From positions 2,813 to 66,812 of the forward strand of contig JBDRCY010000026.1 of the NCBI GenBank assembly GCA_043821265.1: DNA of 64,000 nucleotides, in the 5' to 3' direction. The notes under the pieces are model-generated. The model had not been told where the DNA came from. It saw only the letters and a program-made list of their open reading frames with translations, and searched no databases. A program made the position numbers and the translations under genes. Each line of letters starts with the position of its first letter. The stretch's first letter is position 1. Shown here piece by piece: positions 31,530 to 59,674 of the stretch. The stretch comes from Chloroflexota bacterium. Lineage in GTDB: Bacteria > Chloroflexota > Dehalococcoidia > Dehalococcoidales > JBDRCY01.

Positions 31530-32390
31530 TTAGTCGCTGTAGAAGGATAAGGCGACCTGCGGCCCGGCGGCGCACGACATCACCGGCGTATAGGCGGTGG
31601 TATAGACCTCCACACAATTCAATTCGGCGGTAATAATTTCCCTCAGCCTATCAGCCTCCTCGGGATTATCCGAATAGTGCACCATGAGATGTAACGGCTT
31701 TTTGATATCCAGGTGCTTCTTGGCCGTGGCCACTAGCCTGAGCAGGCATTTTTGTTTGCCCCGGGCCCGGCCCAGGGCATCGACCATGCCGGTGCCGCTA
31801 ACTATGCCGATGATTGGTTTCACCTGCATCAGGTTGCCGATGAAGCCAGCGACCTTGGGGGCGCGGCCGGTTTTAATCAGGTACTTGAGGGTATCCAGGG
31901 CGGCCACGAATTTCACCCTTGGTATCATGTTATGGGCCACCTCGATGACTTTGGCCACGCTTCTACCTGCCTTGGCGGCGCGGGCGGCTTCTAAGACGAT
32001 GAAACCGAGCGCACCGGCGGCGGTCTTGCTATCGATAATCTCGATTTTAAGACGGGGATTTTTCTCGGTTACTATTTTCTTAGCCTGGACCGCCGACTCG
32101 TGGGTGGCGCTCAGCGCTTTCGGTAGCAGGATGCAAACGATGTTGTTGGTAACCTTGCCCAGTTCGGTAAAGGTATCGGCAAAATCCTGCGGGTTGGCCG
32201 CACTGGTGGAGGGCGGTTCCTTGAGGTCTTTGAATATACTCCAGAATTCGGCGGGGGTGATGTCTATCTGGTCCCGGTACGGTTTGCCATTAATAACGAT
32301 GCCTACCGGTACTACGCGGATACCGTATTCCTCAATTAACTCTGGAGGCAGGCAATTGGTGCTGTCGGTGACAATACCTACTTTTGACAT
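31530..32390 (-). CDS. DegV-family fatty-acid-binding protein
   Basis: 286 aa. VGIVTDSTNCLP, IIDSKTAAGALGFIVLEAA. Confidence 0.88.
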   Translation of the reverse strand: MSKVGIVTDSTNCLPPELIEEYGIRVVPVGIVINGKPYRDQIDITPAEFWSIFKDLKEPPSTSAANPQDFADTFTELGKVTNNIVCILLPKALSATHESAVQAKKIVTEKNPRLKIEIIDSKTAAGALGFIVLEAARAAKAGRSVAKVIEVAHNMIPRVKFVAALDTLKYLIKTGRAPKVAGFIGNLMQVKPIIGIVSGTGMVDALGRARGKQKCLLRLVATAKKHLDIKKPLHLMVHYSDNPEEADRLREIITAELNCVEVYTTAYTPVMSCAAGPQVALSFYSD

Positions 32391-32428
32391 TTGCTTTTCC
32401 CCCCTTCTGTTAGATTCATATTACGCTA

Positions 32429-33283
32429 CTAAGAGTAGAAGGATAGTGCCAGAACCGGCCCGGTATGGGCGGCGATGACCGGGGTGTATTCGGTCATATA
32501 GAGTTCGGCACAATTGTACTTACTGGTGACCAGTTCCTTCAGTTGCTCACCGTCCTCCCGGTTGTCGGTGTAATGCACCATTATATGTAGCGGCTTGGTG
32601 GTATCGGTATAGTTCTGCACCATGTCAACCAGCTTGAGCATGGTTTTTCTCTTGCCCCTGGCCCGTGACGCTGGCTCCACTGAACCGGTCTCGTTGTTAT
32701 TGGTAAGGATTGGTTTCACCTGTAGCAGGTCTCCAATCATGGCTACCTTGGGGGCTCGGCCTCCCTTGATGAGATATTTCAGGGTATCCAGTGCGACGAG
32801 GTACTTTACCTTGGGTATCAGGCTGTTAACCAGCTCAACCACCTCGGCCAGGCTTTTACCCGCCTTGGCGGCACGGGCGGCTTCCAGGACGATAAAGCCC
32901 AGGGCACCGGTGGCGGTTTTGGAGTTGATAACCTCTATATTAAGATTGGGCCGTTCCGCCTGAACCAATTCCTTGGCTTTAATGGCTGAATCATAGGTGC
33001 CGCTTAAGGGCTGGGATACCACGATGCAGGCGATATTATCGGTGGCTTGGCCCAATTCCTTGAAGTAAGCGGCAAAGTCGCCGGGGCTGACGGCGCTGGT
33101 GGTGGGCATTTCCTCCAGGCCTTTGAACATCTTCCAGAATCGGGTGGGGGTGATGTCTACCTGGTCCCGGTAGGGCTTGCCTCCGATGATCAGTACCACC
33201 GAAGCCACGCGTATACCGTATTCGGCGATTAGCTCTGCCGGCAGGCAGTTGGTGGTGTCGGTAACAATACCTACTGGGGACAT
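32429..33283 (-). CDS. DegV-family fatty-acid-binding protein (tandem paralog)
   Basis: MSPVGIVTDTTNCLP start at 33283, preceded by AGGAGG. The longer ORF to 33412 would overlap fabG. Confidence 0.88.
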   Translation of the reverse strand: MSPVGIVTDTTNCLPAELIAEYGIRVASVVLIIGGKPYRDQVDITPTRFWKMFKGLEEMPTTSAVSPGDFAAYFKELGQATDNIACIVVSQPLSGTYDSAIKAKELVQAERPNLNIEVINSKTATGALGFIVLEAARAAKAGKSLAEVVELVNSLIPKVKYLVALDTLKYLIKGGRAPKVAMIGDLLQVKPILTNNNETGSVEPASRARGKRKTMLKLVDMVQNYTDTTKPLHIMVHYTDNREDGEQLKELVTSKYNCAELYMTEYTPVIAAHTGPVLALSFYS

Positions 33284-33308
33284 TTTATCTAAGGCCTCCT
33301 TTACGGGT

Positions 33309-34058
33309 CTATATGACACCGCCGTCAATGCAGATAACCTGTGCCGTAATGTAGCTGGCCCGTTCGCTGGCCAGGAAGGCGGCCAGCTCGGCCACATCCT
33401 CCGGCCGGCCAAAACGCTTTAAGGGGATACGGGAGAGAATGGCCTCCTGGGTCTCCTGGGGTAACCTATCTGTCATCTCGGTAACGATGAACCCGGGGGC
33501 GATGGTATTGGCGGTGATGTTCAGCGAACCCACCTCGCGCGCTACGCTCTTGGTAAAGGCGATGAGTCCGCCCTTGGCTGCGGAGTAGTTCGCCTGCCCC
33601 TGATTTCCCACCAGGCCGGCCAGAGAGGAGATATTGATGATACGACCCCACTGCTCAGCCATCATGGAGCGCAGGGCGAACTTGGTGCAGAGATAAGCAC
33701 CGCGCAGGTTGGTATCGAGTACCTCATCCCAGGCATCGTCGCTCATTCGCGGCAGCAGGTTATCCCTGGTAATACCGGCGTTGTTTACCAGGATATCAAT
33801 CCGGCCCCATTTCGCGGTAATTTCGCTGGTCATGGACCTTACCGCTTTAGCATCGGCCACATTGGCCTTCATCAGCATGGACTCTCCGCCGCCACTCTCA
33901 ATCTTCCGGGCTACCTTGCTGGCCTCGGTATCATTGGCTACGTAGTTGATGGCCACCCTGGCATCGAGGCTGGCCAACTTGATGGCGATGGCCCTGCCCA
34001 GCCCCCGCGATGCTCCCGTTACCAGGGCTACCTTTCCCTCCAGTTCTCTTGAAGCCAT
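33309..34058 (-). CDS. fabG: 3-oxoacyl-ACP reductase
   Basis: 249 aa. ALVTGASRGLGRAIA, NISSLAGLVGNQGQANYSAAKGG. Confidence 0.9.
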   Translation of the reverse strand: MASRELEGKVALVTGASRGLGRAIAIKLASLDARVAINYVANDTEASKVARKIESGGGESMLMKANVADAKAVRSMTSEITAKWGRIDILVNNAGITRDNLLPRMSDDAWDEVLDTNLRGAYLCTKFALRSMMAEQWGRIINISSLAGLVGNQGQANYSAAKGGLIAFTKSVAREVGSLNITANTIAPGFIVTEMTDRLPQETQEAILSRIPLKRFGRPEDVAELAAFLASERASYITAQVICIDGGVI

Positions 34059-34067
34059 TTTACTCCT

Positions 34068-35297
34068 TTACGCGGCGCGTCTTATAACGATGCAGCAGTT
34101 CTGTCCGCCCATGCCGAAGGAGTTGGAGAGACATATATTAACTGGCTGATGGCGTGCCTTATTGGGCACATAATCGAGGTCACAGTCCGGGTCGGGGGTT
34201 TCGTAGTTGGTGGTGGGCGGGATAATGCCGGAGTTGATGCTCTTGACGACGGCCACGGCTTCCACGGCCCCGGCGGCGCAGGCCATATGCCCGATCATCG
34301 ATTTGATGGAGCTTACGGGTATCTGGTAGGCCTTCTTCCCGAAGGCCATCTTGATGGCCTGGCTCTCGGCGCTGTCGTTGAGCTTGGTGCCGGTGCCGTG
34401 GGCATTGATATAATCGACCTCTTCCGGTGAGATACCGGCGTCCTCGATGGCCATTTTCATGGCTTGGGCCTGCATTTCGGCATCGGGGGCAACATCGTTA
34501 TAGGCGTCAAACGACCAGCCCGCCCCGGCCAGTTCCGCCAGTATGGGCACCTTACGCTTGCGGACATGTTCTTCGGTTTCCAGTATGACTATGCCGGCCC
34601 CCTCGCTGTGAATAAAACCGTCCCGGTTGAGGTCGAAGGGGCGGCTGGCTTTCTGTGGGTCCGGGTTTCGCGACAGGGCGCCCACCCGGCCGCAGCTGGC
34701 GACAGCGATGGGGGTTACCTGCGACTCGGCTCCGCCGGCAATCATGACATCGGCATGTCCCAGGCGGAGATGGTTCAGTGCGGTGCCCAGGGCATCGCTT
34801 CCGCTGGCGCAGGCGCTGTTCAGGCTCAAATTAGGCCCCTTAAGGCCGAATACCAGGCCTACCTGTCCCGGCACCATGCTTGGTGCCACCTTGTTGATAA
34901 GCAGCGGGTCGACCCTCATCGGCCCGCGTTTCTTGATGGTCTCACCGAATTCAGCTAGCAGGGAGACCATGCCGCTGGTGGCAATTACTACCCCCACCCT
35001 TTCCGGCCTCTCCCGGGATATGTCCAGGCCCGCTTCCGCTATCGCCATTTTAGTGGCGGCGATGGCGAACTGGGTGCAGCGGGCGGTGCGGTCAACTCGC
35101 TTGATGTGCATATAATTGGTGGGTTCAAAGCCCTTCACCTCGGCGGCTATCTTGATGGGGTAAGAGCTGGCATCGAACTGCGTTATCGGGCCGATGCCGG
35201 ACCGGCCGTTGATTAGTCCCTGCCAGTAGGACTCCACGTCCAGCCCCAGGGGGGTGATGGCACCGAGCCCGGTAATAAACACTCTACGATTCGACAA
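34068..35297 (-). CDS. fabF: Beta-ketoacyl-ACP synthase II
   Basis: NSACASGSDA, NAHGTGTKLND, IGHMACAAG, NSFGMGGQN. TTG start at 35297 lies 5 nt after GAGGAGG and gives about 410 aa. The ORF track start at 35369 overlaps fabL by 86 nt. Confidence 0.9.
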   Translation of the reverse strand: MSNRRVFITGLGAITPLGLDVESYWQGLINGRSGIGPITQFDASSYPIKIAAEVKGFEPTNYMHIKRVDRTARCTQFAIAATKMAIAEAGLDISRERPERVGVVIATSGMVSLLAEFGETIKKRGPMRVDPLLINKVAPSMVPGQVGLVFGLKGPNLSLNSACASGSDALGTALNHLRLGHADVMIAGGAESQVTPIAVASCGRVGALSRNPDPQKASRPFDLNRDGFIHSEGAGIVILETEEHVRKRKVPILAELAGAGWSFDAYNDVAPDAEMQAQAMKMAIEDAGISPEEVDYINAHGTGTKLNDSAESQAIKMAFGKKAYQIPVSSIKSMIGHMACAAGAVEAVAVVKSINSGIIPPTTNYETPDPDCDLDYVPNKARHQPVNICLSNSFGMGGQNCCIVIRRAA

Positions 35298-36084
35298 CTT
35301 GGCCTCCTCGGTTAAGGTCTGCGGGGTTAAGGCCGACCGAGGATAGGGATTGGCCGCCGTCAATGACAATGATTTGTCCGTTTATCATCGCCGCCTCGTC
35401 GCTGGCGAGGAAGGCGACCACGTTGGCCACGTCCTCCGGCTGTACCATCCGGCCCACGGGCGTAGTCTGCCAGGCCCCCTTGGGCAGTGCCGGGTCACTG
35501 GTATATATCTTGAGGGTCTCCGTTTCCACGGCGGAGGGGGCTACCCCGTTGACGCAGATGCCCCTGGGGGCCAGCTCGGTGGCCAGGTAGCGCGTCAGTG
35601 CCTCCAGTGCGGCCTTGGATACACCTACGGCGGTGTAAACGGGCAGGGTCAGACGGGAGCCGAGGCTGGATATGCTCACCATCTTGCCGCCGTTCTGCAT
35701 CAAGTGAGCGGCCCTCTGGGCACAGAGCAGGAAGGCCCGGGCATTTATATCCATGGTCCAGTCCCAGCTTCTACTATCCAGGTCGAGGGCGGGGCGGGCA
35801 ACGCCAGAGGCGGCGTTACTTATGAATATGTCCAGCCGGCCGAACTTCGCCTCTATCTCATCGAACATTTGGTCTATCTTTTCCGGTTCGCCCACATTGG
35901 CCTTGATGGTGTGGGCGCTAACACCCTTGTCCCGGGCTTCCTGGGCGGTGAGGTTGGCGGCCTCTCGCTTGCGGAAGTAATTAATAATGACGTCAGCCCC
36001 CTCTGAGGCTAATTTCAGGGTAATGGCCCGGCCAATTCCCCGGGAGCCGCCGGTTATCAGGGCGATTTTACCTTTGAATGACAT
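35284..36084 (-). CDS. fabL: Enoyl-ACP reductase, FabL-type SDR
   Basis: 266 aa. Co-linear by eye with B. subtilis FabL as I remember it (ITGGSRGIGRA, KANVGEPEKI, FGRLDIF, NNAASGV, WDWTMDINA, VSISSLGS, YTAVGVSKAALEALTRYLA). Confidence 0.75.
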   Translation of the reverse strand: MSFKGKIALITGGSRGIGRAITLKLASEGADVIINYFRKREAANLTAQEARDKGVSAHTIKANVGEPEKIDQMFDEIEAKFGRLDIFISNAASGVARPALDLDSRSWDWTMDINARAFLLCAQRAAHLMQNGGKMVSISSLGSRLTLPVYTAVGVSKAALEALTRYLATELAPRGICVNGVAPSAVETETLKIYTSDPALPKGAWQTTPVGRMVQPEDVANVVAFLASDEAAMINGQIIVIDGGQSLSSVGLNPADLNRGGQVVES

Positions 36085-36107
36085 CTTCTACCTCGTTAGC
36101 ACGGCGG

Positions 36108-36350
36108 CTATTTCCTTTCCGCTGCCTTGCGCTCGATGTAAGCGATAAAGTCGCCCATATTTTGGGCGTCCTTGAGCTCCTCGTCCACTATCTCGATGTC
36201 GTAGGTATCTTCCAGGGCGACCAGTATTTGCACGATATCGAGTGAGTCAGCCTGTAAATCCTTGAAGGTGGTGGTGGGGGTGAAATCCACATCCGGCTTG
36301 CGTACGATCTTGGTCACAATCTTCTTTACCGTTTCTTCAACTGTTGGCAT
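36108..36350 (-). CDS. acpP: Acyl carrier protein
   Basis: 80 aa. Phosphopantetheine site LQADSLDIVQ. Confidence 0.92.
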   Translation of the reverse strand: MPTVEETVKKIVTKIVRKPDVDFTPTTTFKDLQADSLDIVQILVALEDTYDIEIVDEELKDAQNMGDFIAYIERKAAERK

Positions 36351-36388
36351 GTAGCACTCCTTTGCTTATTTGGTCTCAACATCTTTGG

Positions 36389-37393
36389 TTATTCGGCTGT
36401 TTGCAGTTTACTGCGGGCGGCCGCCAGTTCGGCCTTCAGTGCGCCTAATATATCCTGTTCCACCGCTATCTTAGCCTGCTCGATTACCTTGACAATTTCG
36501 CCGTAATGGCAGCGGCCGTGGGCCACACAGGCGACCCCGTTTACCGCCAGTAATGGCCCCCCGCCCCGGGCATCGGCGGCATTGGTGGCCAGTATCAGGC
36601 TATCGGTAATCTCCTTGATATCGCTTTCGGGTAGTTTATTCTTTAGCTTATCTTCAAGCCACCGGGCGGTAATTTTCCCCAGGGACTCGCAGAATTTTAT
36701 CATGATATTGCCCACGAAACCATCGCAGATAATGACGTTGGCCTTGCCCAACGCTACGTCGTAGCCCTCCACATTGCCGATAAAGTTAAGCCCGCACTTC
36801 TGGAAGAGGGGATAGCTGGCCCTTACCTGTTCATTGCCCTTGCCCTCTTCGGCGCCGATGCTGAGGAGGGCCACGGTGGGATTGGGGATATTCATGAATT
36901 TGCGGGCGAGCACGGTGCCCACGATGGCGAAATCTATGAGCTGGTCCGGCCGGCAATCTACGTTGCCACCGCAGTCCATCACGACGGTATTTGGGGCGAA
37001 ACCGAGGAAGGCACCGCCTACCACGGGGCGGGCTATCCCCTCCACGGTGCCCAGTACCCCCAGGGCTGACGCTACTACTCCGCCCGTAGGCCCGGCACTG
37101 ACCATGGCATCCGCCCGGCCGTCCCTTACCAGCTTGGTGGCGACCAGGATGGAGGCATTCCGCTTCTGGCGCAGGGCATAGGCGGGGTGTTCGCCCTCTA
37201 CCAGGTATTCATTGGTGGCTACGATGTCAATGTTAGCCCCCGAGGTGTCGTGCTTGGCCAGTTCTTTGTTGATGATATCCTCTGGCCCGACGAGTGTGAT
37301 ATCGACGCCGTACTGCTTGGCGGCTATCACTGCGCCCTTTACAATATCATCAGGGGCATGGTCGCCGCCCATGGCGTCAACTGCTATGCGCAT
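36389..37393 (-). CDS. plsX: Phosphate:acyl-ACP acyltransferase
   Basis: 334 aa. MRIAVDAMGGDHAP, FIGNVEG, CDGFVGN. Confidence 0.92.
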   Translation of the reverse strand: MRIAVDAMGGDHAPDDIVKGAVIAAKQYGVDITLVGPEDIINKELAKHDTSGANIDIVATNEYLVEGEHPAYALRQKRNASILVATKLVRDGRADAMVSAGPTGGVVASALGVLGTVEGIARPVVGGAFLGFAPNTVVMDCGGNVDCRPDQLIDFAIVGTVLARKFMNIPNPTVALLSIGAEEGKGNEQVRASYPLFQKCGLNFIGNVEGYDVALGKANVIICDGFVGNIMIKFCESLGKITARWLEDKLKNKLPESDIKEITDSLILATNAADARGGGPLLAVNGVACVAHGRCHYGEIVKVIEQAKIAVEQDILGALKAELAAARSKLQTAE

Positions 37394-37826
37394 TGCTCTT
37401 TACCTCTAGGCTGGCTTCTCCGGTGATTATGGACTCTCCCTTTTGATTCTGGACGGATATCTCGCAATCGACTTTGGTCTGCTCTCCGGCTTTTTCTATA
37501 CGGCGTACCTGGCCGTTAATGGTAACGGTATCGCCCGGCCGGGCGGGATTTCTAAACCTTACGTTGAGCTTACCCCCGATGAGCCAGCTTGGCCCGAAGG
37601 CGGCCGTCATCATCTGGGAGACATAGGCCAGGACGAGCATCCCGTGGGCGATAGTGCCGCCCAGTGGGGTCTTCTTGGCGAAATCCTCGTCTATGTGGAT
37701 GGGATTAAAATCCCGGCTGGCTTCGGCATAGAGGTTGATGTTCTCTTGGGTAACCGTCTTGCTAAGCCCGGGGAGATTCATCCCCTCGGTCAGTCTATCC
37801 AGTTCTAATGGTGGACTGTTTCCCAT
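37377..37826 (-). CDS. MaoC-like hot-dog dehydratase, catalytic type
   Basis: 149 aa. Hydratase-2 motif YAEASRDFNPIHIDEDFA with Asp and His present. Overlaps the plsX start by 17 nt. Confidence 0.8.
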   Translation of the reverse strand: MGNSPPLELDRLTEGMNLPGLSKTVTQENINLYAEASRDFNPIHIDEDFAKKTPLGGTIAHGMLVLAYVSQMMTAAFGPSWLIGGKLNVRFRNPARPGDTVTINGQVRRIEKAGEQTKVDCEISVQNQKGESIITGEASLEVKSNAHSS

Positions 37827-37831
37827 TTTAG

Positions 37832-38251
37832 TTAGCTATCCTCTGCTGGCTGCGGTAGTATAAAACCGGTTCTTCCGGCGAGAACCGGTTGGCCGCCCTG
37901 GTTACGGACATCGAGGGTAACGGTCAACAGGTGCAGTCTGCCTCGTTCCTGCTTCCGGCTCACTTTAGCATAGGAGGTGATAGTGTCGCCTATATTCGTG
38001 GCGTTGATGAAATCCAACTCCTGGGAGATATGTATCGTCCCCGGAGGTAGCGAGATAGCCTCACCCAGGGCGGCCATGGCATAGGCGGCTATCGCCGTGG
38101 GCGGGACGAGCCCACCGTCCCCATACCGGTTGCTATCCTCGACTGCCTTGAGGTAGGTGGCCACCGCGGCCGGCTCCAGCCGGTAGCTGGCCGGCGGGAA
38201 CTCGTAGCCTGGCTCAAGTTGGCTGAATTCGACCTTTGGCTGCTCTGGCAT
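37832..38251 (-). CDS. MaoC_dehydrat_N-like hot-dog protein, non-catalytic type
   Basis: 139 aa, hot-dog-sized, lacks the D-x-N-P-x-H motif. First gene of the fab operon, 5 nt upstream of its catalytic partner. Confidence 0.65.
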   Translation of the reverse strand: MPEQPKVEFSQLEPGYEFPPASYRLEPAAVATYLKAVEDSNRYGDGGLVPPTAIAAYAMAALGEAISLPPGTIHISQELDFINATNIGDTITSYAKVSRKQERGRLHLLTVTLDVRNQGGQPVLAGRTGFILPQPAEDS

Positions 38252-38288
38252 ACTATTTGACCCAGGGTTTTTTCTTCCGTATACTCAA

Positions 38289-38313
38289 TTTTGCATAGAC
38301 CATCTAGGTATAT
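38289..38313. promoter_or_regulatory. Degenerate copy of the ATACCTAG-N5-CTAGGTAT palindrome, just downstream of the fab operon promoter
   Basis: TTTTGCATAG-ACCAT-CTAGGTATAT. The right arm is perfect and the left arm matches 6/10. Confidence 0.45.
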
Positions 38314-38324
38314 CCTTGGAATGG

Positions 38325-38353
38325 ATATTACCAGCAGCCTGGGTCTTTGTCAA
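38325..38353 (-). promoter_or_regulatory. Sigma-70-like promoter of the fab operon
   Basis: Minus strand reads TTGACA (38353-38348), 17-nt spacer, TAATAT (38330-38325). About 70 nt upstream of the ATG at 38251. Confidence 0.55.
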
Positions 38354-40006: not shown

Positions 40007-40021
40007 AGAGGAGAAGATGAC

Positions 40022-41281: not shown

Positions 41282-41299
41282 GAAAGGGGACGTCTTAAG

Positions 41300-42874: not shown

Positions 42875-42888
42875 GGCCTATTCTGAGT

Positions 42889-43851
42889 ATGAAACTACTG
42901 GCGCCGGTGGATAGGGTCGAGGAGGTGGCGGCGGTTATCCGTGCCGGGGCCGACGAGTTGTACTGCGGGCTGCTTACCGCCGACTGGCATGAGCGGTATA
43001 TTGCCGGCTCTATCAACCGGAGACCGGGCGGCGGTGCCAGTTTTACCACCCTCGCTGATCTGGCGGCCTGTGTCGACATTGCTCACTCTTCGAACGTCCC
43101 CGTTTTCTTAGCCGTGAACGAGCACTACTATACCCGGGAGCAGTACCCTTTTATCCGGGACTATGTGGAGAAGGTAGCGGCCGTCGGTATTGATGCCCTG
43201 ATGGTGGCCGATTTGGCCCTGCTACTGACCCTGCGGCAGATGGAGACCGGGATAAAGGTGATTATCAGCACCGGGGGGACCGCCTTCAATTCAGAGACAG
43301 TAAGGTTCTATCAGGACCTGGGGGCATCACGGGTAACGCTGCCCAGGCATCTGACACTGGACGAAATAGGGGATATCAGGGCCGGTGCCCCCGATGTTGA
43401 GCTGGGGGTCTTTATTTTGAACTCTCGCTGTCCCAACGTGGATGGCTTCTGCACCTTTCAGCACGGCCTGGCAAATAAATCCCTGAAACCACTGTTTCAG
43501 AATGCCTGTATGTTGCCCTATGAGGTATCTCTGGGGGCCGGTGGTGAACAGTCGCGGGTGTCATGGGAGCGGCAGCATATCTGGCAGCTAGTGCACATCG
43601 ATGACCACCCCTGTGGCGCCTGTGCCATCTATGACCTTGCCGGGACGGGTGTCAGCAGCCTAAAGATTGTCGGCCGGGGAAATCCGACGGCCCGGAAGCT
43701 AACCGACATCGGCTTTATCCGCTCGTTACTCGAGTTTCGGGAAAATGAGCGGCCCACAAGGGATGAATTCAGGGAGGTGGCACAGCAGCGGTATCGGGAC
43801 ACCTACCAGCGCCCCTGCCGGGGCTATATGTGCTACTATCCTGTCTGGTAG
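42889..43851 (+). CDS. Peptidase-U32-family protein, UbiU-like (divergent Cys pattern)
   Basis: 320 aa. MKLLAPVDRVEEVAAVIRAGADELYCG, DALMVADL, RVTLPRHLTLDEI. Cys residues at NSRCPNVDGFC, HPCGAC, RPCRGYMC. Confidence 0.7.
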   Translation: MKLLAPVDRVEEVAAVIRAGADELYCGLLTADWHERYIAGSINRRPGGGASFTTLADLAACVDIAHSSNVPVFLAVNEHYYTREQYPFIRDYVEKVAAVGIDALMVADLALLLTLRQMETGIKVIISTGGTAFNSETVRFYQDLGASRVTLPRHLTLDEIGDIRAGAPDVELGVFILNSRCPNVDGFCTFQHGLANKSLKPLFQNACMLPYEVSLGAGGEQSRVSWERQHIWQLVHIDDHPCGACAIYDLAGTGVSSLKIVGRGNPTARKLTDIGFIRSLLEFRENERPTRDEFREVAQQRYRDTYQRPCRGYMCYYPVW

Positions 43852-43858
43852 TTTGGTT

Positions 43859-44650
43859 ATGGAACAGGCATTATTTATCGCAAAGGTTGAGCATCTGAAG
43901 TATTATGAGCCTCGTTTCTCCCGGATATACTTCGGTAATGAGTTCTGCCAGCAGCTTATTCCCTCCGTCGGTGATTTGGAGCGGGTACTGGATTTTGTGG
44001 GGCAGAATAATCTCGATTTCACCCTGGTCAGTCCGTATGTTACCGACCGGGGGTTGGAGGGATTGGAGCCCCTGCTGGCGGCGACTGCGGAGGGCAAGCC
44101 GGGTAGCGAGGTGGTCTTTAACGATTACGGGGTGTGGCGTGTCCTTAAGGGCCGCTATCGGGGGCTTAGTCCGGTGATGGGGCGCCTGCTGAATAGAATG
44201 AAGCGTGGGCCCAGGTTGATGACGGTCATTGATAAACTGCCGTCGAGCACGGTGGACTACTTCAGGAGTTCGAACCTTGCCGTGCCCGTCCTGCGCTGGT
44301 TTCTGGCCGAAAGCGGGGTCAGCCGGGTGGAACTGGACAATGTACTTCAGGGTATGGACTTTAACCTCGATGGCCTGAAGGCGTCGCTGTACTGGCCCTA
44401 CGCTTACGTTACTACGACGCGGCTGTGTCTGGCGAATTGCGGCGAAGAACCGGAGAGCCGAGAGAAGATTGGCATTTTCCCCTGCGAGCGGGAGTGCCGG
44501 AAATACACCTTTTACCTGGAGAATGAGGCAATGCCGGTCCCCCTGATAAGGAAGGGTAACACTATCTTCTTTGAAAACGAGGCGTTGCCCGATGATATGT
44601 CCGGGTTGGGGATAGACCGTATCGTTGTTGAGCCTGAGTTGCCCATTTAG
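43859..44650 (+). CDS. Peptidase-U32-family protein, UbiV-like
   Basis: 263 aa from the ATG at 43859. RIYFGNEFCQQL resembles UbiV VIYLGEAVCSKR, YWPYAYVTTTRLCLANC resembles YGHLPLAYSARCF, and PCERECRKY resembles ECETCCIKY (E. coli sequence from memory). Confidence 0.6.
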   Translation: MEQALFIAKVEHLKYYEPRFSRIYFGNEFCQQLIPSVGDLERVLDFVGQNNLDFTLVSPYVTDRGLEGLEPLLAATAEGKPGSEVVFNDYGVWRVLKGRYRGLSPVMGRLLNRMKRGPRLMTVIDKLPSSTVDYFRSSNLAVPVLRWFLAESGVSRVELDNVLQGMDFNLDGLKASLYWPYAYVTTTRLCLANCGEEPESREKIGIFPCERECRKYTFYLENEAMPVPLIRKGNTIFFENEALPDDMSGLGIDRIVVEPELPI

Positions 44651-52472: not shown

Positions 52473-52502
52473 TTGACAAAGCCGGTTTCAACGTGGTAAA
52501 TA
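52473..52502 (+). promoter_or_regulatory. Sigma-70-like promoter of the third degV gene
   Basis: TTGACA (52473-52478), 18-nt spacer, TAAATA (52497-52502). Confidence 0.45.
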
Positions 52503-52526
52503 TACCTAGACGAACTAGGTATATTT
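52498..52526. promoter_or_regulatory. Perfect 12-5-12 palindrome (candidate repressor operator) overlapping the -10 region and start site of degV
   Basis: AAATATACCTAG-ACGAA-CTAGGTATATTT. The arms are exact reverse complements. Confidence 0.6.
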
Positions 52527-52548
52527 TTATAAGGTAGTAGCTATTGTG

Positions 52549-53403
52549 ATGTCTAAGGTTTGCATTGTAACCGATAGTACCAGTTGCCTGCCGGCGGAGC
52601 TGATCGAGGAATACGGCATACGAGTGGCGCCGGTGGGTTTCGTTATTGATGGCAAGCACTACCGCGACCAGGTAGACATTACCACGGCTGAATTCTGGGA
52701 ATTATTTCCCAATCTGGAGGAACAGCCCAGCACAACTGCCGCCAGTCCCGGTGACTTTGTTAATATCTTCACCGAAATGAGTGAGTCCACCGATAGTATC
52801 GTCTGTATCCTGGTCTCCAAGGTGCTGTCGGCCACCCAGGAATCGGCCTATTTGGCCCGGAGGCTGGTAAAACAGGACCACCCCAACCTCAGAATAGAGA
52901 TTATTGATAGCAAGACAGCGGCCGGGGCGATGGGATTCGTTGTTCTGGAGGCGGCTCGTGCTGCCCATCAGGGTAAGAGCCTGGAAGAGGTTCTTGAAGT
53001 TACTGAGGATATGATTCCCCGGGTAGTCTATTTTGCCGCCCTGGAGACACTGAAGTATCTGGCAAAGATAGGGCGGGCACCCCGGGGTGCCTCCGTCGGC
53101 GAGATGCTCAAGGTAAAGCCTATAATCGGCTTCGTCGATGATACCGGTCTGCTGGATCTGGTCGCCAGGGTGAGAGGGCGGGATAAGGCCCTGGCCAAGC
53201 TGGTCGACCTGATGGAAGACTACATCGAGGATGGCAATCCGGTGCATGTCATGGTGCATTACTCCGAGGATAATAAGGATGTAGAGATGCTAAGGGAGAT
53301 GGTTTCTTCACGTTATAATTGTGTGGAAATGTATGACGGAGAGTTCTCGCCGGTAATGGTCGGTGCTGTCGGTCCCATAGTGGGGCTGTCCTTCTATACA
53401 TAA
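52549..53403 (+). CDS. DegV-family fatty-acid-binding protein (third copy)
   Basis: MSKVCIVTDSTSCLP, IIDSKTAAGAMGFVVLEAA. The ORF track start at 52546 is a GTG one codon upstream. Confidence 0.88.
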   Translation: MSKVCIVTDSTSCLPAELIEEYGIRVAPVGFVIDGKHYRDQVDITTAEFWELFPNLEEQPSTTAASPGDFVNIFTEMSESTDSIVCILVSKVLSATQESAYLARRLVKQDHPNLRIEIIDSKTAAGAMGFVVLEAARAAHQGKSLEEVLEVTEDMIPRVVYFAALETLKYLAKIGRAPRGASVGEMLKVKPIIGFVDDTGLLDLVARVRGRDKALAKLVDLMEDYIEDGNPVHVMVHYSEDNKDVEMLREMVSSRYNCVEMYDGEFSPVMVGAVGPIVGLSFYT

Positions 53404-53449
53404 TAATCTGGCGATTGGCTATAGATAAACTAGACTATGGAGGTTGTTT

Positions 53450-54673
53450 ATGAAAAGGGGACTAATGCGTGTAGGATTACTTATTTTTCTGTCTCTGCTA
53501 TTGTTGCTCACACCCATCGTCTCGGCTTGTGGTGGCGGAGCACCCAAGGGGGCGGAGATACGTATCGGGGTGATGGGTGGGCAGTCAGCTCACGCCGCTT
53601 CCTCGGTAGTTCCTCTGCTTGAAGAGCTGGAGCATATCTTCCGTTACATCAATGAGGTGGAGGGTGGTATCGATGGTGTTAAGGTGGACTGGCGCATTGT
53701 GGATAACAAGGGGACGCCCGATGGTGCCGTAATGGCCTATAAGGAACTGAGGGATACCTTTGACCCGCTGGTTTATCTGTCCGTCGAGGATTACCTCTTG
53801 CTGGGCATTAAAGACATGCTGGCTGAGGATGAGTCGGTCGTATTCACCCTCTCAACAATCAATCCGCAGGGCTTTCTACCACCGGGGCGACTGTTTAGCG
53901 TAGCTATCCCCACTGCCGACGGCCTTGCCGGGTTTGCACGCTGGGTCTTAAGCGACTGGAAGGGCAGCGGCAAGCCCAAAATCGGCGTACTTTATTGGGA
54001 TCTACCGTCCGGCCAGCAGTGGCGGATTGCCGAAGCCTGGATGAGGAATCAGGGGGTGGACTTGGTGCCCACTACCTTCCCTATAACCGCCCTTGACCTA
54101 AAGCCGCAGCTCTTGAGCCTGCGTGATGCCGGGGTGGACTATATCTGGATGCTGGGCCTCGCCCATAATGCGGCGGTAGCCATCAGGGATTTCCGGGGCC
54201 TGGGTCTTGCTGATAAGATAACCTTCTGCTTTAACGAATATACCGAGGCCAATGTAGTGCTGGATATTGTCGGCCCGGCGGCGGAGGGCTTTTACACATA
54301 TCGTTCCGAAAGCCCTTACTCCGATGGGAGCCAGGCGGCCCAGCTCTACAGTGAAATCTGGAAATGGGCTACCGGCGAGGACAAATGGACGGATAACCGC
54401 ATCCTCATCACCTTCAAGGCGGCGCTCGGTGCCGCGGTGGAACAGGCGGTGGCTGATGTCGGCTGGGAGAACCTGGACAGCGTAGCCGTTTATGATGCCT
54501 TAAATAAGCTTACCGAGATTGATACCTGGGGAAATAGCGAGGGCTTTGGCTACGGTCCCACTAAGAGAATCGGCGTTTCCACGGTCAAGCTGGCGCAGTT
54601 CACCAAGGACGGGACGGTGGCTGTGAGCGAGGCGGTAGATTTACCCCGCATCTTTGAGGGCGTAGATAAGTAA
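53450..54673 (+). CDS. ABC transporter substrate-binding lipoprotein (LivJ/Peripla_BP_6 type)
   Basis: ATG at 53450 lies 6 nt after GGAGG. Signal peptide with lipobox IVSAC. About 400-aa type-I periplasmic binding fold. Confidence 0.8.
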   Translation: MKRGLMRVGLLIFLSLLLLLTPIVSACGGGAPKGAEIRIGVMGGQSAHAASSVVPLLEELEHIFRYINEVEGGIDGVKVDWRIVDNKGTPDGAVMAYKELRDTFDPLVYLSVEDYLLLGIKDMLAEDESVVFTLSTINPQGFLPPGRLFSVAIPTADGLAGFARWVLSDWKGSGKPKIGVLYWDLPSGQQWRIAEAWMRNQGVDLVPTTFPITALDLKPQLLSLRDAGVDYIWMLGLAHNAAVAIRDFRGLGLADKITFCFNEYTEANVVLDIVGPAAEGFYTYRSESPYSDGSQAAQLYSEIWKWATGEDKWTDNRILITFKAALGAAVEQAVADVGWENLDSVAVYDALNKLTEIDTWGNSEGFGYGPTKRIGVSTVKLAQFTKDGTVAVSEAVDLPRIFEGVDK

Positions 54674-54747: not shown

Positions 54748-55518
54748 TTAACCGGCGGAATGGGCATTAGGATAGTTAAAGAAGGCACCGTACCCGTTCA
54801 GGCCGTAGCCTTCCTTTACTTGCGCATGGTCGCTGAATTGATCCGTCTCCCCGTCGGAGGCTACTCTTCCGTTCTGGAGGACATAGCCATAGTCAGCGAT
54901 GGCCAGGGCGGCTACGGCATTCTGCTCGGCAATCAACAGCGAGGTTTTCTCCTCTTCGTTTATTTGCTTGAGAATATCAAATATGCCTTTTATCAGTGTC
55001 GGGGCCAGTCCCAGGGAGGGTTCGTCAAGCAGCATGATTCTGGGTCGGGCCATGAATGCCCGGCCAATTACCAGCATCTTTTGCTCACCCCCGGAGAGAT
55101 ACCCGCTCTTCTGGTGGCGCCGTAACGCCAGCTGGGGGAAATAACCGTAGACTCGGCTTAAGTCTGGTTTGATATTAGGCCTATCTCGCCGGAGATAGGC
55201 TCCCATAATCAGGTTCTCTTCGGTAGTCAGTTGGGGAAATACCGAGCGCTCTTGCAGCACGTGGCAGATGCCCCGTCGGGCTATCTTTTCGGGGTTCAGC
55301 CCGTCTATACGCCTGCCGTCAAGCTCGATAGTGCCTTCGGTGAGCTCGCCGTCTTCAGTCTTGAGTATTCCCGAAATGCTTTTCAGCGTGGTTGATTTCC
55401 CGCTGCCGTTTGAGCCCAGCAGAACAGCGATTTTGCCGTCCTCTACCTTGAGGGATACCTCGCTAAGGGCCAGCACCACGTCGCTGTACACCGCCTTGAT
55501 TTTATGCAGCTTAAGCAT
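54748..55518 (-). CDS. livF: Branched-chain amino acid ABC transporter ATP-binding protein
   Basis: 256 aa. GSNGSGKST, LSGGEQKML, LLDEPSLGLAP. Confidence 0.85.
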   Translation of the reverse strand: MLKLHKIKAVYSDVVLALSEVSLKVEDGKIAVLLGSNGSGKSTTLKSISGILKTEDGELTEGTIELDGRRIDGLNPEKIARRGICHVLQERSVFPQLTTEENLIMGAYLRRDRPNIKPDLSRVYGYFPQLALRRHQKSGYLSGGEQKMLVIGRAFMARPRIMLLDEPSLGLAPTLIKGIFDILKQINEEEKTSLLIAEQNAVAALAIADYGYVLQNGRVASDGETDQFSDHAQVKEGYGLNGYGAFFNYPNAHSAG

Positions 55519-55542
55519 CGTCCACCCTCTTTACTGCCGGCA

Positions 55543-56598
55543 TCAATACCCGAAAGGCCACCGTTTGTAGTTTATTCTAATCTTGCGCCATAGCGCAATC
55601 AGCCCGTATGGCTGAAAGGATATAAATAGTACAATCACCAGCCCGTAAAGGCCATAGGTCAGGGTCACCGATAGGTTACTGCTGAGGATAGTAGTCCCGC
55701 TGGCCAGGCTGACAGCGTGTAGTATTTGGCTAATCAGCCGTAGAAAGACAACCCCCATGACTGCGCCGGCAGTGCTGCCGGCGCCGCCGATAATAATCAT
55801 GCCCACATACCATATCGAGTCCCAGACGGTGAATTGATCCAGCCTCACCACGCTCACGTAGCTGGCCCATAGCCCGCCGGCCAGCCCGGCGAATAGTGAG
55901 CCGACAAAGAAGGCGCGCAGCTTGGTAAAGCGCACATTAATTCCCAGGCTGGCGGCGGTTATGTCGTTATCCCTTACCGCTCGGAAGGCCCGGCCCAGCC
56001 GGGACCGGGCAATATTAGCCGAGGCCATGATGCAAATGGTGCTTAGCCCCAGGAGCAGGTAGAACCATTTGCTATCGGTAGTAATCTTTAAGCTGCCAAT
56101 GGTAGGGTAGGGTATGCCCATTAGTCCGTGGATACCACCGGTAACCTCCAGGTTGCGTATAATATACTGGGCAATAAAGAAGAAGGCGAGGGTCACTATG
56201 GCTACGTAAAATCCCCGCAGCCGTGCCGACGGAATGGCGACTAGGAACCCGATTACTCCCGTGATAAGGGTAGCCGCGGCCAGTGCCGCCCAGAAAGGCC
56301 AGTCGGCCTTAATGGCGAGGGTGGCCAGAGTGTAGCCGCCTACCATGATGAAGGCGGAATGCCCCAGGCTGATTTGCCCGGCCATCCCGGTAATAACATT
56401 CAGTCCCAGAACGCCGATGATAGTAATGAAGGTGATATTCATGAAGGTAACCCAGTTCATGTTATGCGATAGTCTCAGCAGTGTTGGCAGAGCGGCCAGC
56501 AGTACCAGGAAGATGGCTACCGCGCTCCATTGTTGTTTGGAGCCGACAAGGGCCATGTCCTGGCTATAGTTGATTCTGGCTCTACCCCTTTTTTTCAC
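55543..56598 (-). CDS. livM: Branched-chain amino acid ABC transporter permease
   Basis: 351-aa polytopic permease. GQISLGHSAF is typical of LivM. Confidence 0.85.
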   Translation of the reverse strand: MKKRGRARINYSQDMALVGSKQQWSAVAIFLVLLAALPTLLRLSHNMNWVTFMNITFITIIGVLGLNVITGMAGQISLGHSAFIMVGGYTLATLAIKADWPFWAALAAATLITGVIGFLVAIPSARLRGFYVAIVTLAFFFIAQYIIRNLEVTGGIHGLMGIPYPTIGSLKITTDSKWFYLLLGLSTICIMASANIARSRLGRAFRAVRDNDITAASLGINVRFTKLRAFFVGSLFAGLAGGLWASYVSVVRLDQFTVWDSIWYVGMIIIGGAGSTAGAVMGVVFLRLISQILHAVSLASGTTILSSNLSVTLTYGLYGLVIVLFISFQPYGLIALWRKIRINYKRWPFGY

Positions 56599-56601
56599 CG
56601 G

Positions 56602-57501
56602 TTAAACCCTCTCTATCGGCTTGGTGCCAAAGAGGCCACTCGGCCGGATAAGCAGTACCAGCAGGATTATCATCATACCAAAGATAGTCTCGAACCCGGG
56701 GAGGTAAGGGCTGATATAGTAGCCGGCTAGGTTCTGTCCGATGGCCAGGATGAGCCCGCCGACGATGCAGCCGATGAGTGAATCAAGCCCACCGATGAGT
56801 ACTACTGCCAGAACAACCATGACCAGTTCGGACAGTGTCATGCTGACCCCTCCCACCGAGGCGATGAGAATGCCGCCGACGGTAGCAATCACGGTGCACA
56901 TGACCCAGGCAATCTGTGAATTTAGCTCGGCGCTAACGCCCAGACACCGGGCGGCGGCTTGGTTATCATAGGCGGCTCTCATAGCCAGGCCTAACTTGGT
57001 GCGCCGGAAGAAGAGGACAAAGACTATCAGCGCTATTACGGCTAGAATAAAGCTCGCGATATATTCCTTGGACAGTACAATGGCACCCAGATTGACCGGT
57101 CCCTTAGGCAGGGTTGTAGCCAGGGCTAGTGTTTTAGGGCCCCAGATGGTCATCACGGCGCTGTGAAGTATCGCCATAAGGCCGAGGGTGAGTATGAAGG
57201 TGGCGAATAGCGGCCGGCCTATCATACGTCGAAACAGGAGGCGTTCTACGGCCAGGCCGAAGACGATAGCGGATATCAGGGTTAGTAAAAGGGCCAGTGG
57301 TAGGGGTAGCCTCGGTGCGTTGGGAGAGCCGATAAAGGTCCAGGCCAAAAAGGCACCCAGCACGGCGAATTGCCCGTAGGCGATGTTGAAGACATGGGCG
57401 CTACGGTAGGTAATGACGAACCCCAGGGCGATGAGTCCGTAAACGCTGCCCACCAGTATTCCGGACAGGATTAGTTGCAGTAGTATAGTCATCGCGGCCA
57501 T
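56602..57501 (-). CDS. livH: Branched-chain amino acid ABC transporter permease
   Basis: 299-aa polytopic permease. NIAYGQFAVLGAF is typical of LivH. Confidence 0.85.
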   Translation of the reverse strand: MAAMTILLQLILSGILVGSVYGLIALGFVITYRSAHVFNIAYGQFAVLGAFLAWTFIGSPNAPRLPLPLALLLTLISAIVFGLAVERLLFRRMIGRPLFATFILTLGLMAILHSAVMTIWGPKTLALATTLPKGPVNLGAIVLSKEYIASFILAVIALIVFVLFFRRTKLGLAMRAAYDNQAAARCLGVSAELNSQIAWVMCTVIATVGGILIASVGGVSMTLSELVMVVLAVVLIGGLDSLIGCIVGGLILAIGQNLAGYYISPYLPGFETIFGMMIILLVLLIRPSGLFGTKPIERV

Positions 57502-58311
57502 TTAGTTCTCTCCCTGACTGGTTACTCCGCCGAGATAGGCAGTGGCGACACGGGAGTCCTGACAGATTTCTGTGGGCGTACCCTCGGCGATAATCTTGCC
57601 GTAGTCCAGGACGATTATGGAGTGCGAAAGCTCCATAACCACGCCCATATCGTGCTCGACGAGGATAATGGTCATTCCCTGCTTGTGCATGTTTAGAATG
57701 AGCTCGCTCATGACCTCCTTCATCGCATCATCAAGGCCGCTCATCGGCTCGTCAAGGAGGATGATTCCGGGTTGCATGGCTAAGGCTCGGGCGATCTCGA
57801 CCTGCTTGCGTTGGCCGTAGGACATGGTGGCTATCGGCCTCTTGCGCAGTTCCTGAATGCGGGTGAAGGATATGATGTTCTCCACCATCCGGCGATTGCT
57901 AAGTTCCTCCCGGCGGCTTCTCCCGAAGTAGAGCATGGCCTCAAGTATGGTGGCCTTGGTGTGGAGGTAGCGGGCGGCCATCAGGATGTCCAGTGCGGTC
58001 ATATTGGGATAGGTGGTGGGGTCCTGAAAGGTGCGGCTTATACCTCGACGGGCTATCTGGTGTGGTTTTAGCCTCACTATGTTCTGGCCTTCGAAGAGTA
58101 TGCGGCCTCGCTGTGGGTGGTAGTAGCCGGTGATGCAGTTTATCAGACAGGTCTTACCAGCACCGTTGGGTCCGATTATAGATAGGATACGTCCTCTTTT
58201 GACCTGAAAGCATATTCCATCGATAGCCTTGATACCGCCGAAATGTAGCTCTAGGTCCTCGGCGGCCAAGACGATGTCATCTTTTGTCTGTTCCATGCGA
58301 AAGTCGACCAA
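57502..58311 (-). CDS. livG: Branched-chain amino acid ABC transporter ATP-binding protein
   Basis: 269 aa. GPNGAGKT, MSYGQRKQVEIARAL, LLDEPMSGL. Confidence 0.85.
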   Translation of the reverse strand: MVDFRMEQTKDDIVLAAEDLELHFGGIKAIDGICFQVKRGRILSIIGPNGAGKTCLINCITGYYHPQRGRILFEGQNIVRLKPHQIARRGISRTFQDPTTYPNMTALDILMAARYLHTKATILEAMLYFGRSRREELSNRRMVENIISFTRIQELRKRPIATMSYGQRKQVEIARALAMQPGIILLDEPMSGLDDAMKEVMSELILNMHKQGMTIILVEHDMGVVMELSHSIIVLDYGKIIAEGTPTEICQDSRVATAYLGGVTSQGEN

Positions 58312-58327
58312 AAATTAGCTAATCCGG

Positions 58328-58354
58328 CCTATACATAGAGTATCTAGGTATAGG
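58328..58354. promoter_or_regulatory. Near-perfect 11-5-11 copy of the ATACCTAG-N5-CTAGGTAT palindrome upstream of livG
   Basis: CCTATACATAG-AGTAT-CTAGGTATAGG (10/11 complementary). It lies 12 nt downstream of a minus-strand TTGACA(58395-58390)-18-TACCCT promoter-like pair. Confidence 0.5.
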
Positions 58355-58431: not shown

Positions 58432-58461
58432 TTGACAATTGCTACCTAGGTATGGCTTAAT
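58432..58461 (+). promoter_or_regulatory. Promoter-like element of the tubulin-like gene, with TACCTAGGTA in the spacer
   Basis: TTGACA (58432-58437), 18-nt spacer containing CTACCTAGGTATGG, then CTTAAT (58456-58461). Confidence 0.4.
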
Positions 58462-58492: not shown

Positions 58493-59674
58493 ATGAAACT
58501 GATAGTTATTGGCTGTGGACAATGCGGTGGCAGGATTGCCGATGAGTTTGCTCGGTTAAATATACGGGCGCGTGCTGAGCGTGGCATAGAGATTATTACC
58601 GGCGCATACGCCGTAAACACCGACGTAGCTGATTTAAGCGGTCTATCCAATATTAGGCGCGATTATCAACACCGGATCTTAATCGGCAATCAGAAGACCG
58701 GCGGGCATGGCGTCGGTAAGATAAACGAACTTGGCGCCGAGATAGCTATGGATGATGGCGACAAGGTTATTGACGCCATCAGGACCACACCACACTTCAA
58801 TGAGACGGATGCCTTCCTGATTGTCTCCAGTGCGGCGGGCGGTACCGGTTCCGGGGCGATACCGACACTGACCAAGAAAATAAAGGAGCGTTACGTCTTA
58901 AAACCGGTCTATAATCTTATCGTGTTGCCCTTCCTGCATGAGGAGGCGACGGAGGAGAGGACGACCTATAATACGGCCACCTGTATTAAGTCGGCTTACT
59001 TGGCGGCTGATGCCATATTCCTGGTGGATAATCAACGGTTTGTTAAAAAGGACTTTCCCATTAAGGACAACCTGGCTAAAATCAATAATGCCGTGGTGAG
59101 TCCTTTTTACAACCTGCTCTGTGCCGGAGAAGAGAAGAAGGCGCAATATATCGGGGCTAAGATGATCGATGCTGGCGATATAATACAGACCCTGGTCGGC
59201 TGGACGGTAATCGGTTATGGCCGGACGACAACGCCGGGGTTCAAGTTCTCCTTCGGCAAGAAGGGTGATGATTTCAGGGATAAGAGCAGCGAGTCACATC
59301 GGGGAACTAATGCCTTACAGGGAGCGATAAATGACTTATCGCTTAAGTGTGACCCGACTGATGCCAGGAGATGCCTGTATCTCGTCTCCGGGCCACCCAA
59401 GCAAATGAGTATGGACATGCTAAGTAATCTGGCCTCGTTTACCAAAGGCATAGCCCCGGAGTCTATCATAAGGAGCGGTGATTATCCCAGGGGTAAAAAC
59501 GCGATGGGCGTTACCGTAATCCTATCCGAGCTCATCAATGTGAGCAAAGTCATGGACTACTTCGCTAAAACGATTGAATATATCCATGCTGCTAAGCGGA
59601 GATGGGGAACGGTTGACCGCCGGCAAGAGAGTATCCAGGATATCTTCAAGGATATTCCCTCGCTGCTGGGCTAG
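58493..59674 (+). CDS. Tubulin/FtsZ-superfamily GTPase, tubulin/CetZ-like rather than canonical FtsZ
   Basis: 393 aa. T1 loop GCGQCGGRIADEF (compare beta-tubulin GQCGNQIGAKF), T4 signature AAGGTGSG, FLVDNQRF (tubulin-type DN), T7-like KMIDAGDIIQTL. Confidence 0.75.
   Translation: MKLIVIGCGQCGGRIADEFARLNIRARAERGIEIITGAYAVNTDVADLSGLSNIRRDYQHRILIGNQKTGGHGVGKINELGAEIAMDDGDKVIDAIRTTPHFNETDAFLIVSSAAGGTGSGAIPTLTKKIKERYVLKPVYNLIVLPFLHEEATEERTTYNTATCIKSAYLAADAIFLVDNQRFVKKDFPIKDNLAKINNAVVSPFYNLLCAGEEKKAQYIGAKMIDAGDIIQTLVGWTVIGYGRTTTPGFKFSFGKKGDDFRDKSSESHRGTNALQGAINDLSLKCDPTDARRCLYLVSGPPKQMSMDMLSNLASFTKGIAPESIIRSGDYPRGKNAMGVTVILSELINVSKVMDYFAKTIEYIHAAKRRWGTVDRRQESIQDIFKDIPSLLG

Follow-up and report, generated by a model that had tools for sequence, protein, structure and literature searches.

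A Conserved Palindrome at Membrane-Lipid Promoters of Dehalococcoidia, the Likely Operator of an Autoregulated PadR-Family Repressor

A palindromic sequence found at five promoters of a Chloroflexota genome (Dehalococcoidia, Dehalococcoidales) is likely the operator through which a PadR-family (subfamily 2) repressor controls both its own gene and fatty-acid and phospholipid genes. It has the marks of an operator: it is rare, intergenic and promoter-proximal, it is conserved before orthologous genes in relatives, and it co-occurs with, and directly adjoins, the gene of a candidate regulator. From this pattern we infer that PadR binds the sites and that binding represses; the signal may be a membrane state or the fatty-acid supply. 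The earlier note on this DNA had proposed, from three sites, a repressor operator that defines a membrane-lipid regulon, and this proposal is now supported by a scan of the whole genome and by conservation in relatives.

Results and Discussion

Palindromic sites in the window and in the genome

The window, by which we mean the whole stretch of 64,000 nucleotides that was analyzed (C26:2813-66812), is part of a draft MAG of 933 kb in 30 contigs with an estimated completeness of 64%. Three palindromes reported in it earlier were confirmed in both sequence and position, with scores taken from the position weight matrix (PWM) described below:

52498..52526 (no strand), O-degV: AAATATACCTAG-ACGAA-CTAGGTATATTT, a perfect 12-5-12 palindrome with a 23-bp core at 52501-52523
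58328..58354 (no strand), O-liv: CCTATACATAG-AGTAT-CTAGGTATAGG, 11-5-11 with one C/A asymmetry; core 58330-58352, 33.3 bits
38289..38313 (no strand), O-fab: TTTTGCATAG-ACCAT-CTAGGTATAT, right arm perfect and left arm degenerate; core 38291-38313, 29.3 bits

Within the window, CTAG-N5-CTAGGTAT with at most one mismatch occurs in just three places, giving 5 strand-matches against 0.28 expected, a number reached by none of 100 shuffles. The whole genome was then scanned with a pattern derived from the three window sites alone, TACCTAG-N5-CTAGGTA with up to two mismatches, which returned these three sites and two new ones, at C10:10198 and C16:9535. A sixth match, inside fabG, was put down to chance, and a loose-pattern match in a gene at C14:2117 was likewise set aside, both being AT-only or degenerate sequences to which the PWM gives no score. 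A symmetrized PWM places the five genomic sites at 28-34 bits, with O-degV the highest-scoring site genome-wide (33.7 bits), the next best match at 16.3 bits and shuffled-genome maxima at 13-19 bits; because this matrix was trained on the same five sites, it is the pattern scan that constitutes the independent test. All five sites are intergenic and promoter-proximal, in a genome for which a crude ORF call gives some 91% coding sequence. This makes the motif rare and positioned, and the reading as a dispersed repeat, for which the earlier note had called for a check, is rejected, with five copies in this genome and zero within genes.

From 87 unique sites collected across genomes, the consensus is ATAC[C/A]TAG-a-nnn-t-CTA[G/T]GTAT, which hardly varies at positions ±3 to ±5 and ±7 and is free in its 3-5 nt center. 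The core described earlier is better written as 10-3-10 or as TAC[C/A]TAG-N5-CTA[G/T]GTA. At the variable mirror position ±6 the two arms are complementary at a frequency of 0.49, compared with 0.46 expected from column composition. Since there is no covariation at this position, the arms vary independently, as two half-sites read by a dimer would and unlike a stem. The palindrome is, on this sequence evidence, a protein-binding site rather than a hairpin. A terminator scan found no terminator-like feature coinciding with any site, and no T-run follows the sites.

Promoter geometry

A TTGACA box stands beside each of the three window sites, at 52473-52478 (+), 38353-38348 (-) and 58395-58390 (-), as had been claimed, and the following promoters were delineated:

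52473..52502 (+), putative degV promoter: TTGACA 52473-52478, 18-nt spacer, TGn extended -10 and TAAATA 52497-52502; recognized by eye
38325..38353 (-), fab operon promoter: TTGACA (38353-38348)-17-TAATAT with TG upstream; called by the consensus scanner
58395-58390 (-), TTGACA of the putative liv promoter, with a weak -10, TACCCT; recognized by eye, uncalled by the scanner
38257..38285 (+), possible divergent promoter: TTGACC-17-TATACT, facing a GlcD/GlcF/U32 operon (38564-44650), with its start region covered by O-fab

The degV promoter escapes the consensus scanner because TAAATA ends in A and is without the final T. Its -10 element overlaps the left arm of O-degV. O-fab begins 11-12 nt downstream of the fab -10, at about +5 to +27, and O-liv lies 12 nt downstream of the weak liv -10, in the same phasing as at fab. 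At the SDR operon on contig C10 the promoter is TTGACA-17-TATACT, with 11 of 12 consensus matches, and its -10 and the operator overlap by 2 nt. The layout is equally regular at 33 padR loci from other MAGs, which show TTGCAA or TTGACA, a -10 abutting the operator, some 10 nt, a GAGGT ribosome binding site and ATG. Judged from these promoter sequences, sites that overlap or follow the -10 are repressor positions. The GlcD/GlcF/U32 operon might be co-regulated through O-fab in this genome; its membership of the regulon is uncertain, and the divergent arrangement at 38257-38285 is absent from the relatives examined.

Genes beside the five sites

In the window, the sites precede three target operons:

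31530..38251 (-), fab target operon: hot-dog, MaoC dehydratase, plsX, acpP, enoyl-ACP-reductase-type SDR, fabF, fabG, degV, degV
52546..54673 (+), degV target operon: degV 52546-53403 (PF02645) and a Peripla_BP_6 solute-binding protein (SBP) 53444-54673
54748..58311 (-), liv target operon: livG-livH-livM-livF-like ABC importer (ATPase, two BPD_transp_2 permeases, ATPase), convergent with degV-SBP

The degV promoter does not drive all three of the DegV proteins named as targets at the outset: it drives one degV together with the SBP gene, and the remaining two are the last genes of the fab operon. The fab operon is headed by the hot-dog/MaoC pair (37377-38251) in place of the expected fabZ, and the same pair heads the fab operon in genomes G004, G032, G102 and G129.

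Outside the window, an SDR gene begins 30 bp downstream of the C10 site; behind it come two HGD-D (2-hydroxyacyl-CoA-dehydratase-like) genes and the gene of a BcrAD/BadFG-type activator ATPase, and the neighborhood also carries plsY. The C16 site is found 51 bp after the stop codon of fabF and ahead of a unit made up of padR, a HAAS membrane protein gene and degV. No regulator is encoded in the window, as had been noted correctly; the padR gene with the motif in its own promoter resides on contig C16. At the fakA-degV pair of this genome (C1:12700-15144) no operator was found, the best PWM score being 0.9, whereas fakA of G041 and of G004 does stand under the motif. Membership of fakA in the regulon is therefore lineage-dependent.

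Two further observations concern genes in these neighborhoods. The module of SDR, two HGD-D and BcrAD/BadFG ATPase genes was found at L001 772-4967 (C10 of this genome, G000), L074 4079-7759 (G004:C42) and L167 55-3195 (G046:C46), and in relatives it adjoins the fab operon or liv genes, which suggests that it may provide an unrecognized radical dehydratase step in lipid metabolism. Divergent from livG, positions 58493-59674 encode a protein that combines a Tubulin (PF00091) with a CetZ_C (PF21011) domain, which makes it a CetZ tubulin of archaeal type although the MAG is bacterial. The promoter spacer of this gene contains one more palindrome, which was excluded from the operators as it is without the N5 architecture:

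58443..58452 (no strand), spacer-less palindrome TACCTAGGTA

The liv importer and the solute-binding protein

The order of site, degV and SBP gene is kept in G046 (27.3 bits) and G051 (14.2 bits), so that the SBP gene follows degV under the operator in three genomes, this one included. Liv-type ABC genes stand alongside degV-SBP in this genome and in G046. The operator proposed before livG is present here, but none precedes the liv genes of G046, the sole relative with an examinable liv cluster, where these genes follow other genes; SBP orthologs occur in just 2 of 28 PadR-positive genomes. The liv operator thus looks specific to this genome. The SBP has no PDB relative at E 1e-5. A supply of branched-chain primers by the importer, as suggested in the earlier note, would draw on the name of the Pfam family and nothing else, and a fatty-acid-like substrate for SBP and importer seems as plausible as amino acids.

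PadR, its HAAS partner and DegV

The padR gene at C16:9664-10005, on another contig of the same genome, encodes 114 aa that match PF03551 at 85.8 bits (cut-off 27), the sole PadR-family match in the assembled genome. Its best PDB matches, aligned over residues 8-113, all belong to PadR subfamily 2 (PadR-s2), with 4esb (bcPadR1, 1.2e-17) and 3f8b (LmrR) among them, and a length of about 110 aa is likewise that of LmrR and the bcPadR proteins. The adjacent gene product carries an N-terminal HAAS domain fused to a multi-TM module of about 8 hydrophobic segments, the arrangement of a HAAS-PadR dyad, with PF22564 at a borderline 27.6 bits against a cut-off of 27; apart from HAAS it has no sizeable soluble domain. 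The HAAS gene adjoins padR in 78 of 80 loci, and degV comes next in 34 of the 36 padR-HAAS loci that bear the motif.

Among the 80 closest padR-HAAS loci, 44 form a subgroup with an "MNYG..." N-terminus that is without the motif and has an adjacent degV in 11 cases. Ten of these loci (L107, L112, L113, L123, L128, L131-L133, L135 and L149) share a highly conserved promoter, ATTGACA-N13-CAATGCTATAGTG, some 90 bp before padR. The subgroup may use a different operator; inspection by eye yielded no firm variant motif in it. The motif-bearing and MNYG groups differ at two DNA-proximal residues, one in the HTH (position 39, Q/N) and one in the wing (position 73, R/Q), a correlation with the motif that is suggestive and not clean.

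Conservation and regulon in relatives

Sixty genomes of the same order, from about 49 families, were surveyed. In most of them the pattern with up to two mismatches occurs well above the reversed-pattern control. Of 61 genomes, 43 encode a PadR ortholog, and many of the top motif matches fall directly 5' of it. The motif center lies at -33 ± 2 relative to the padR start in about 20 of 29 loci, and a center about 33 bp before the padR start codon is given for more than 40 genomes overall; an independent scan of genome contigs placed a site within 600 bp upstream of padR at 36 of 80 loci. With the strict pattern TRYMTAG-N5-CTAKRYA, again controlled by its reverse, 17 PadR-positive genomes gave 26 matches against 0 controls, whereas 17 mostly near-complete PadR-negative genomes gave 3 matches (all AT-only TATATAG variants) against 4 controls. 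The genomes with a match differ between the two groups at a Fisher p of 9e-5, uncorrected for phylogeny. In 143 genomes from the other orders of the class the strict pattern is found 24 times against 20 controls. The few canonical-looking sites outside the order do stand directly before PadR genes, whose products share 59-62% identity (G129, G099) or 39-40% identity (G078, G165, G200).

To describe the regulon in relatives, sites other than those of padR were collected in eight relatives of the order and their neighbors annotated. These sites lie 11-125 bp before genes, and fatty-acid or phospholipid genes adjoin about 12 of the 18. Four sites in three genomes precede plsY (G038, G019 and, twice, G004). 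The hotdog-maoC-plsX-acpP operon is preceded by a site in G004 and G032, and in two genomes of another order (family f91) a site lies about 30 bp upstream of the fab operon, which brings the fab/plsX operon sites in relatives to 4, 2 of them in another order. Sites precede degV in G041 and G004, and in G041 also fakA-degV and SDR-degV-HGD; in G004 the genes behind the sites include plsY-glycosyltransferase-fakA and a 4HBT acyl thioesterase gene divergent from plsY. The remaining sites precede dxs, genes for a PorA-like protein or small membrane proteins, or unknowns. The conservation asked for in the earlier note is thus seen upstream of the fab/plsX operon, degV, plsY, fakA and padR, across many families and into a second order.

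Two small open reading frames were noticed beside such sites. In eight relatives a strong distal operator is followed directly by a conserved ORF, upstream of padR, whose product has about 47 aa and two hydrophobic helices (MKLLSLAICSLGIWVVLNSF...DIVFGAIAAILA); it is found at about 4137-4290 in L065 and also in L086, L090, L100, L103, L159, L069 and L059. This membrane peptide is probably an unannotated member of the regulon; it was not found in the assembly of the present genome. At L078 2040-2130 (G033:C72), the gene of a small membrane protein that starts MKVLAIIVVILGLASLVMG is separated from a TTGACA-17-TATGAT promoter by a canonical operator with an additional half-site (TTCTAGGTAT).

Proposed model and alternatives

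In the model that we favor, a PadR dimer would bind the two TAC[C/A]TAG half-sites, whose centers are 12 bp apart. A dimer placed over the -10/+1 region (degV, SDR operon, padR) or at about +5 to +27 (fab, liv) would block initiation or early elongation. The regulon of this genome would then comprise the hotdog-maoC-plsX-acpP-fab-degV-degV operon, degV-SBP, the livGHMF-type importer, the operon of SDR and 2-hydroxyacyl-CoA-dehydratase-like genes, and padR-HAAS-degV itself, to which relatives would add plsY, fakA-degV and the acyl thioesterase. Repression would be relieved or imposed, probably, through the co-transcribed HAAS partner of about 8 TM segments, with the DegV of the same operon maybe involved, so that membrane state or fatty-acid supply would set the expression of synthesis and scavenging genes. 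A partner with no big soluble domain beyond HAAS, and a degV that is nearly always the third gene, fit the sensing of the bilayer or of fatty-acid supply.

A bolder form of this model, which we put forward tentatively as a possibility, treats the padR-HAAS(8TM)-degV triad as a membrane-embedded lipid homeostat. Here HAAS would read the bilayer, or a fatty acid delivered by DegV, and would hold or release PadR, and synthesis (fab, plsX, plsY) and scavenging (fakA, degV, importer) would both be set directly from the membrane. The SBP-dependent LIV-type ABC importer may, in such a homeostat, carry fatty acids instead of amino acids.

We consider it unlikely that the motif, as a true lipid-regulon operator, is bound by a different transcription factor, with padR-HAAS-degV merely one more of its targets. 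Adjacency to padR could be read in that way, the motif is unlike the ATGT/ACAT box that is canonical for PadR, some genomes with the regulon motif show no recognizable site before padR (G004, for one, with four perfect sites beside lipid genes), and from a genome that is just 64% complete further regulators could be missing. Against this, padR is the only regulator gene beside the sites in any locus examined, the motif follows the presence of the PadR ortholog over 34 genomes and precedes PadR genes down to 39% identity in other orders, and its fixed -33 position is typical of autoregulation. PadR therefore stays the preferred binder. That PadR would instead activate, or act as a dual regulator, at some promoters is improbable, and the padR promoter of this very genome is where the idea arises. 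Here the site lies 108 nt before the start codon and, in the coordinates of L002, occupies 5034-5056, 27 nt upstream of a second promoter-like match, TTGTAA-17-TATTAT (5083-5111), that falls between site and start codon. That match scores only 9/12, however, and a TTGCCA-17-TATATA reading made by eye overlaps it. The promoters of degV, fab, the SDR operon and more than 30 padR genes instead have the site over or after their -10, as a repressor site would be. Finally, the palindrome can hardly be a hairpin (attenuator, terminator or cruciform) or a small dispersed repeat that serves no regulatory protein: its arms can pair and the C16 copy does follow a fabF stop codon, but the arm sequence is conserved around a free center with no covariation at variable mirror positions, the sites show neither a T-run nor a terminator call, the copies are only five and all promoter-proximal, and the motif tracks a transcription factor gene.

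Comparison with known systems

FapR of Bacillus and Staphylococcus is a single repressor that coordinates fab genes with plsX, and thereby fatty-acid with phospholipid synthesis, as we propose for PadR here. FapR joins a DeoR-type HTH and a malonyl-CoA-sensing hot-dog domain in one protein, and has no membrane partner, unlike the present PadR. The motif is not known to match the operators of FapR, FabT, FabR, FadR or DesT, and FapR, FabT and DesT make use of the soluble acyl-thioester pool, unlike the membrane homeostat proposed above. FabT, a MarR protein of Streptococcus, Enterococcus and Lactococcus, resembles the present system in being an autoregulated repressor with a palindromic operator at FASII promoters. 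Its hosts also take up exogenous fatty acids through the PlsX/PlsY and FakA/FakB (DegV) route. The two differ in regulator family (MarR vs PadR), probably in operator, and in that FabT is soluble with acyl-ACP as corepressor whereas the regulator here is paired with a HAAS multi-TM protein; in contrast to that of FabT, the regulon here also spans plsY, fakA and degV.

PadR-s2 proteins such as LmrR and bcPadR1/2 are repressors that also regulate their own expression; they bind inverted repeats by placing two recognition helices into successive major grooves, and the canonical PadR box is ATGT-N8-10-ACAT (PMC3506622). The present PadR shares with them its size of about 110 aa, a wHTH with a single C-terminal helix, and a spacing of about 12 bp between half-site centers as in ATGT-N8-ACAT. 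The motif itself reads AC[C/A]T-N9-A[G/T]GT, an everted order that departs from the canonical box, and known PadR-s2 targets are detoxification or efflux genes where those here serve lipid synthesis. On purely genomic grounds, Ravi et al. (mSystems 2024, PMC11237479) proposed that dyads of HAAS and PadR-like wHTH proteins relay membrane-linked signals to the transcription factor, as an alternative to two-component systems. These dyads likewise consist of padR followed by an N-terminal HAAS fused to a multi-TM module, but the genes found with them are those of PspC, LiaF, Toastrack and envelope stress, and no operator or regulon was defined (PMC11237479). For the present dyad an operator is defined, the regulon is one of fatty-acid and phospholipid genes, and degV is usually the third gene. 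A full-text literature search retrieved no paper that connects PadR with plsX, plsY, fakA or fabF, and none on the regulation of lipids in Dehalococcoidia. PstR of Plesiomonas (PMC11566425), a PadR whose transcriptome effects include fatty-acid degradation, is unrelated. Transcription-factor regulons for membrane-lipid synthesis are known, and what would be new is the regulator family and its membrane-partner architecture in that role.

Conclusion

In an entire lineage of the environmentally abundant and mostly uncultured Dehalococcoidia, a PadR-type repressor accompanied by a multi-pass membrane protein appears to govern fab, plsX, plsY and fakA/degV. This would give the HAAS-PadR "alternative two-component" systems, so far purely predicted, their first defined operator and regulon. 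The motif can be used to annotate lipid-linked genes, such as the SDR/HGD-D operon, the 47-aa membrane peptide and the degV-linked SBP, and would offer a concrete regulatory handle on the lipid biology of the Dehalococcoidia.
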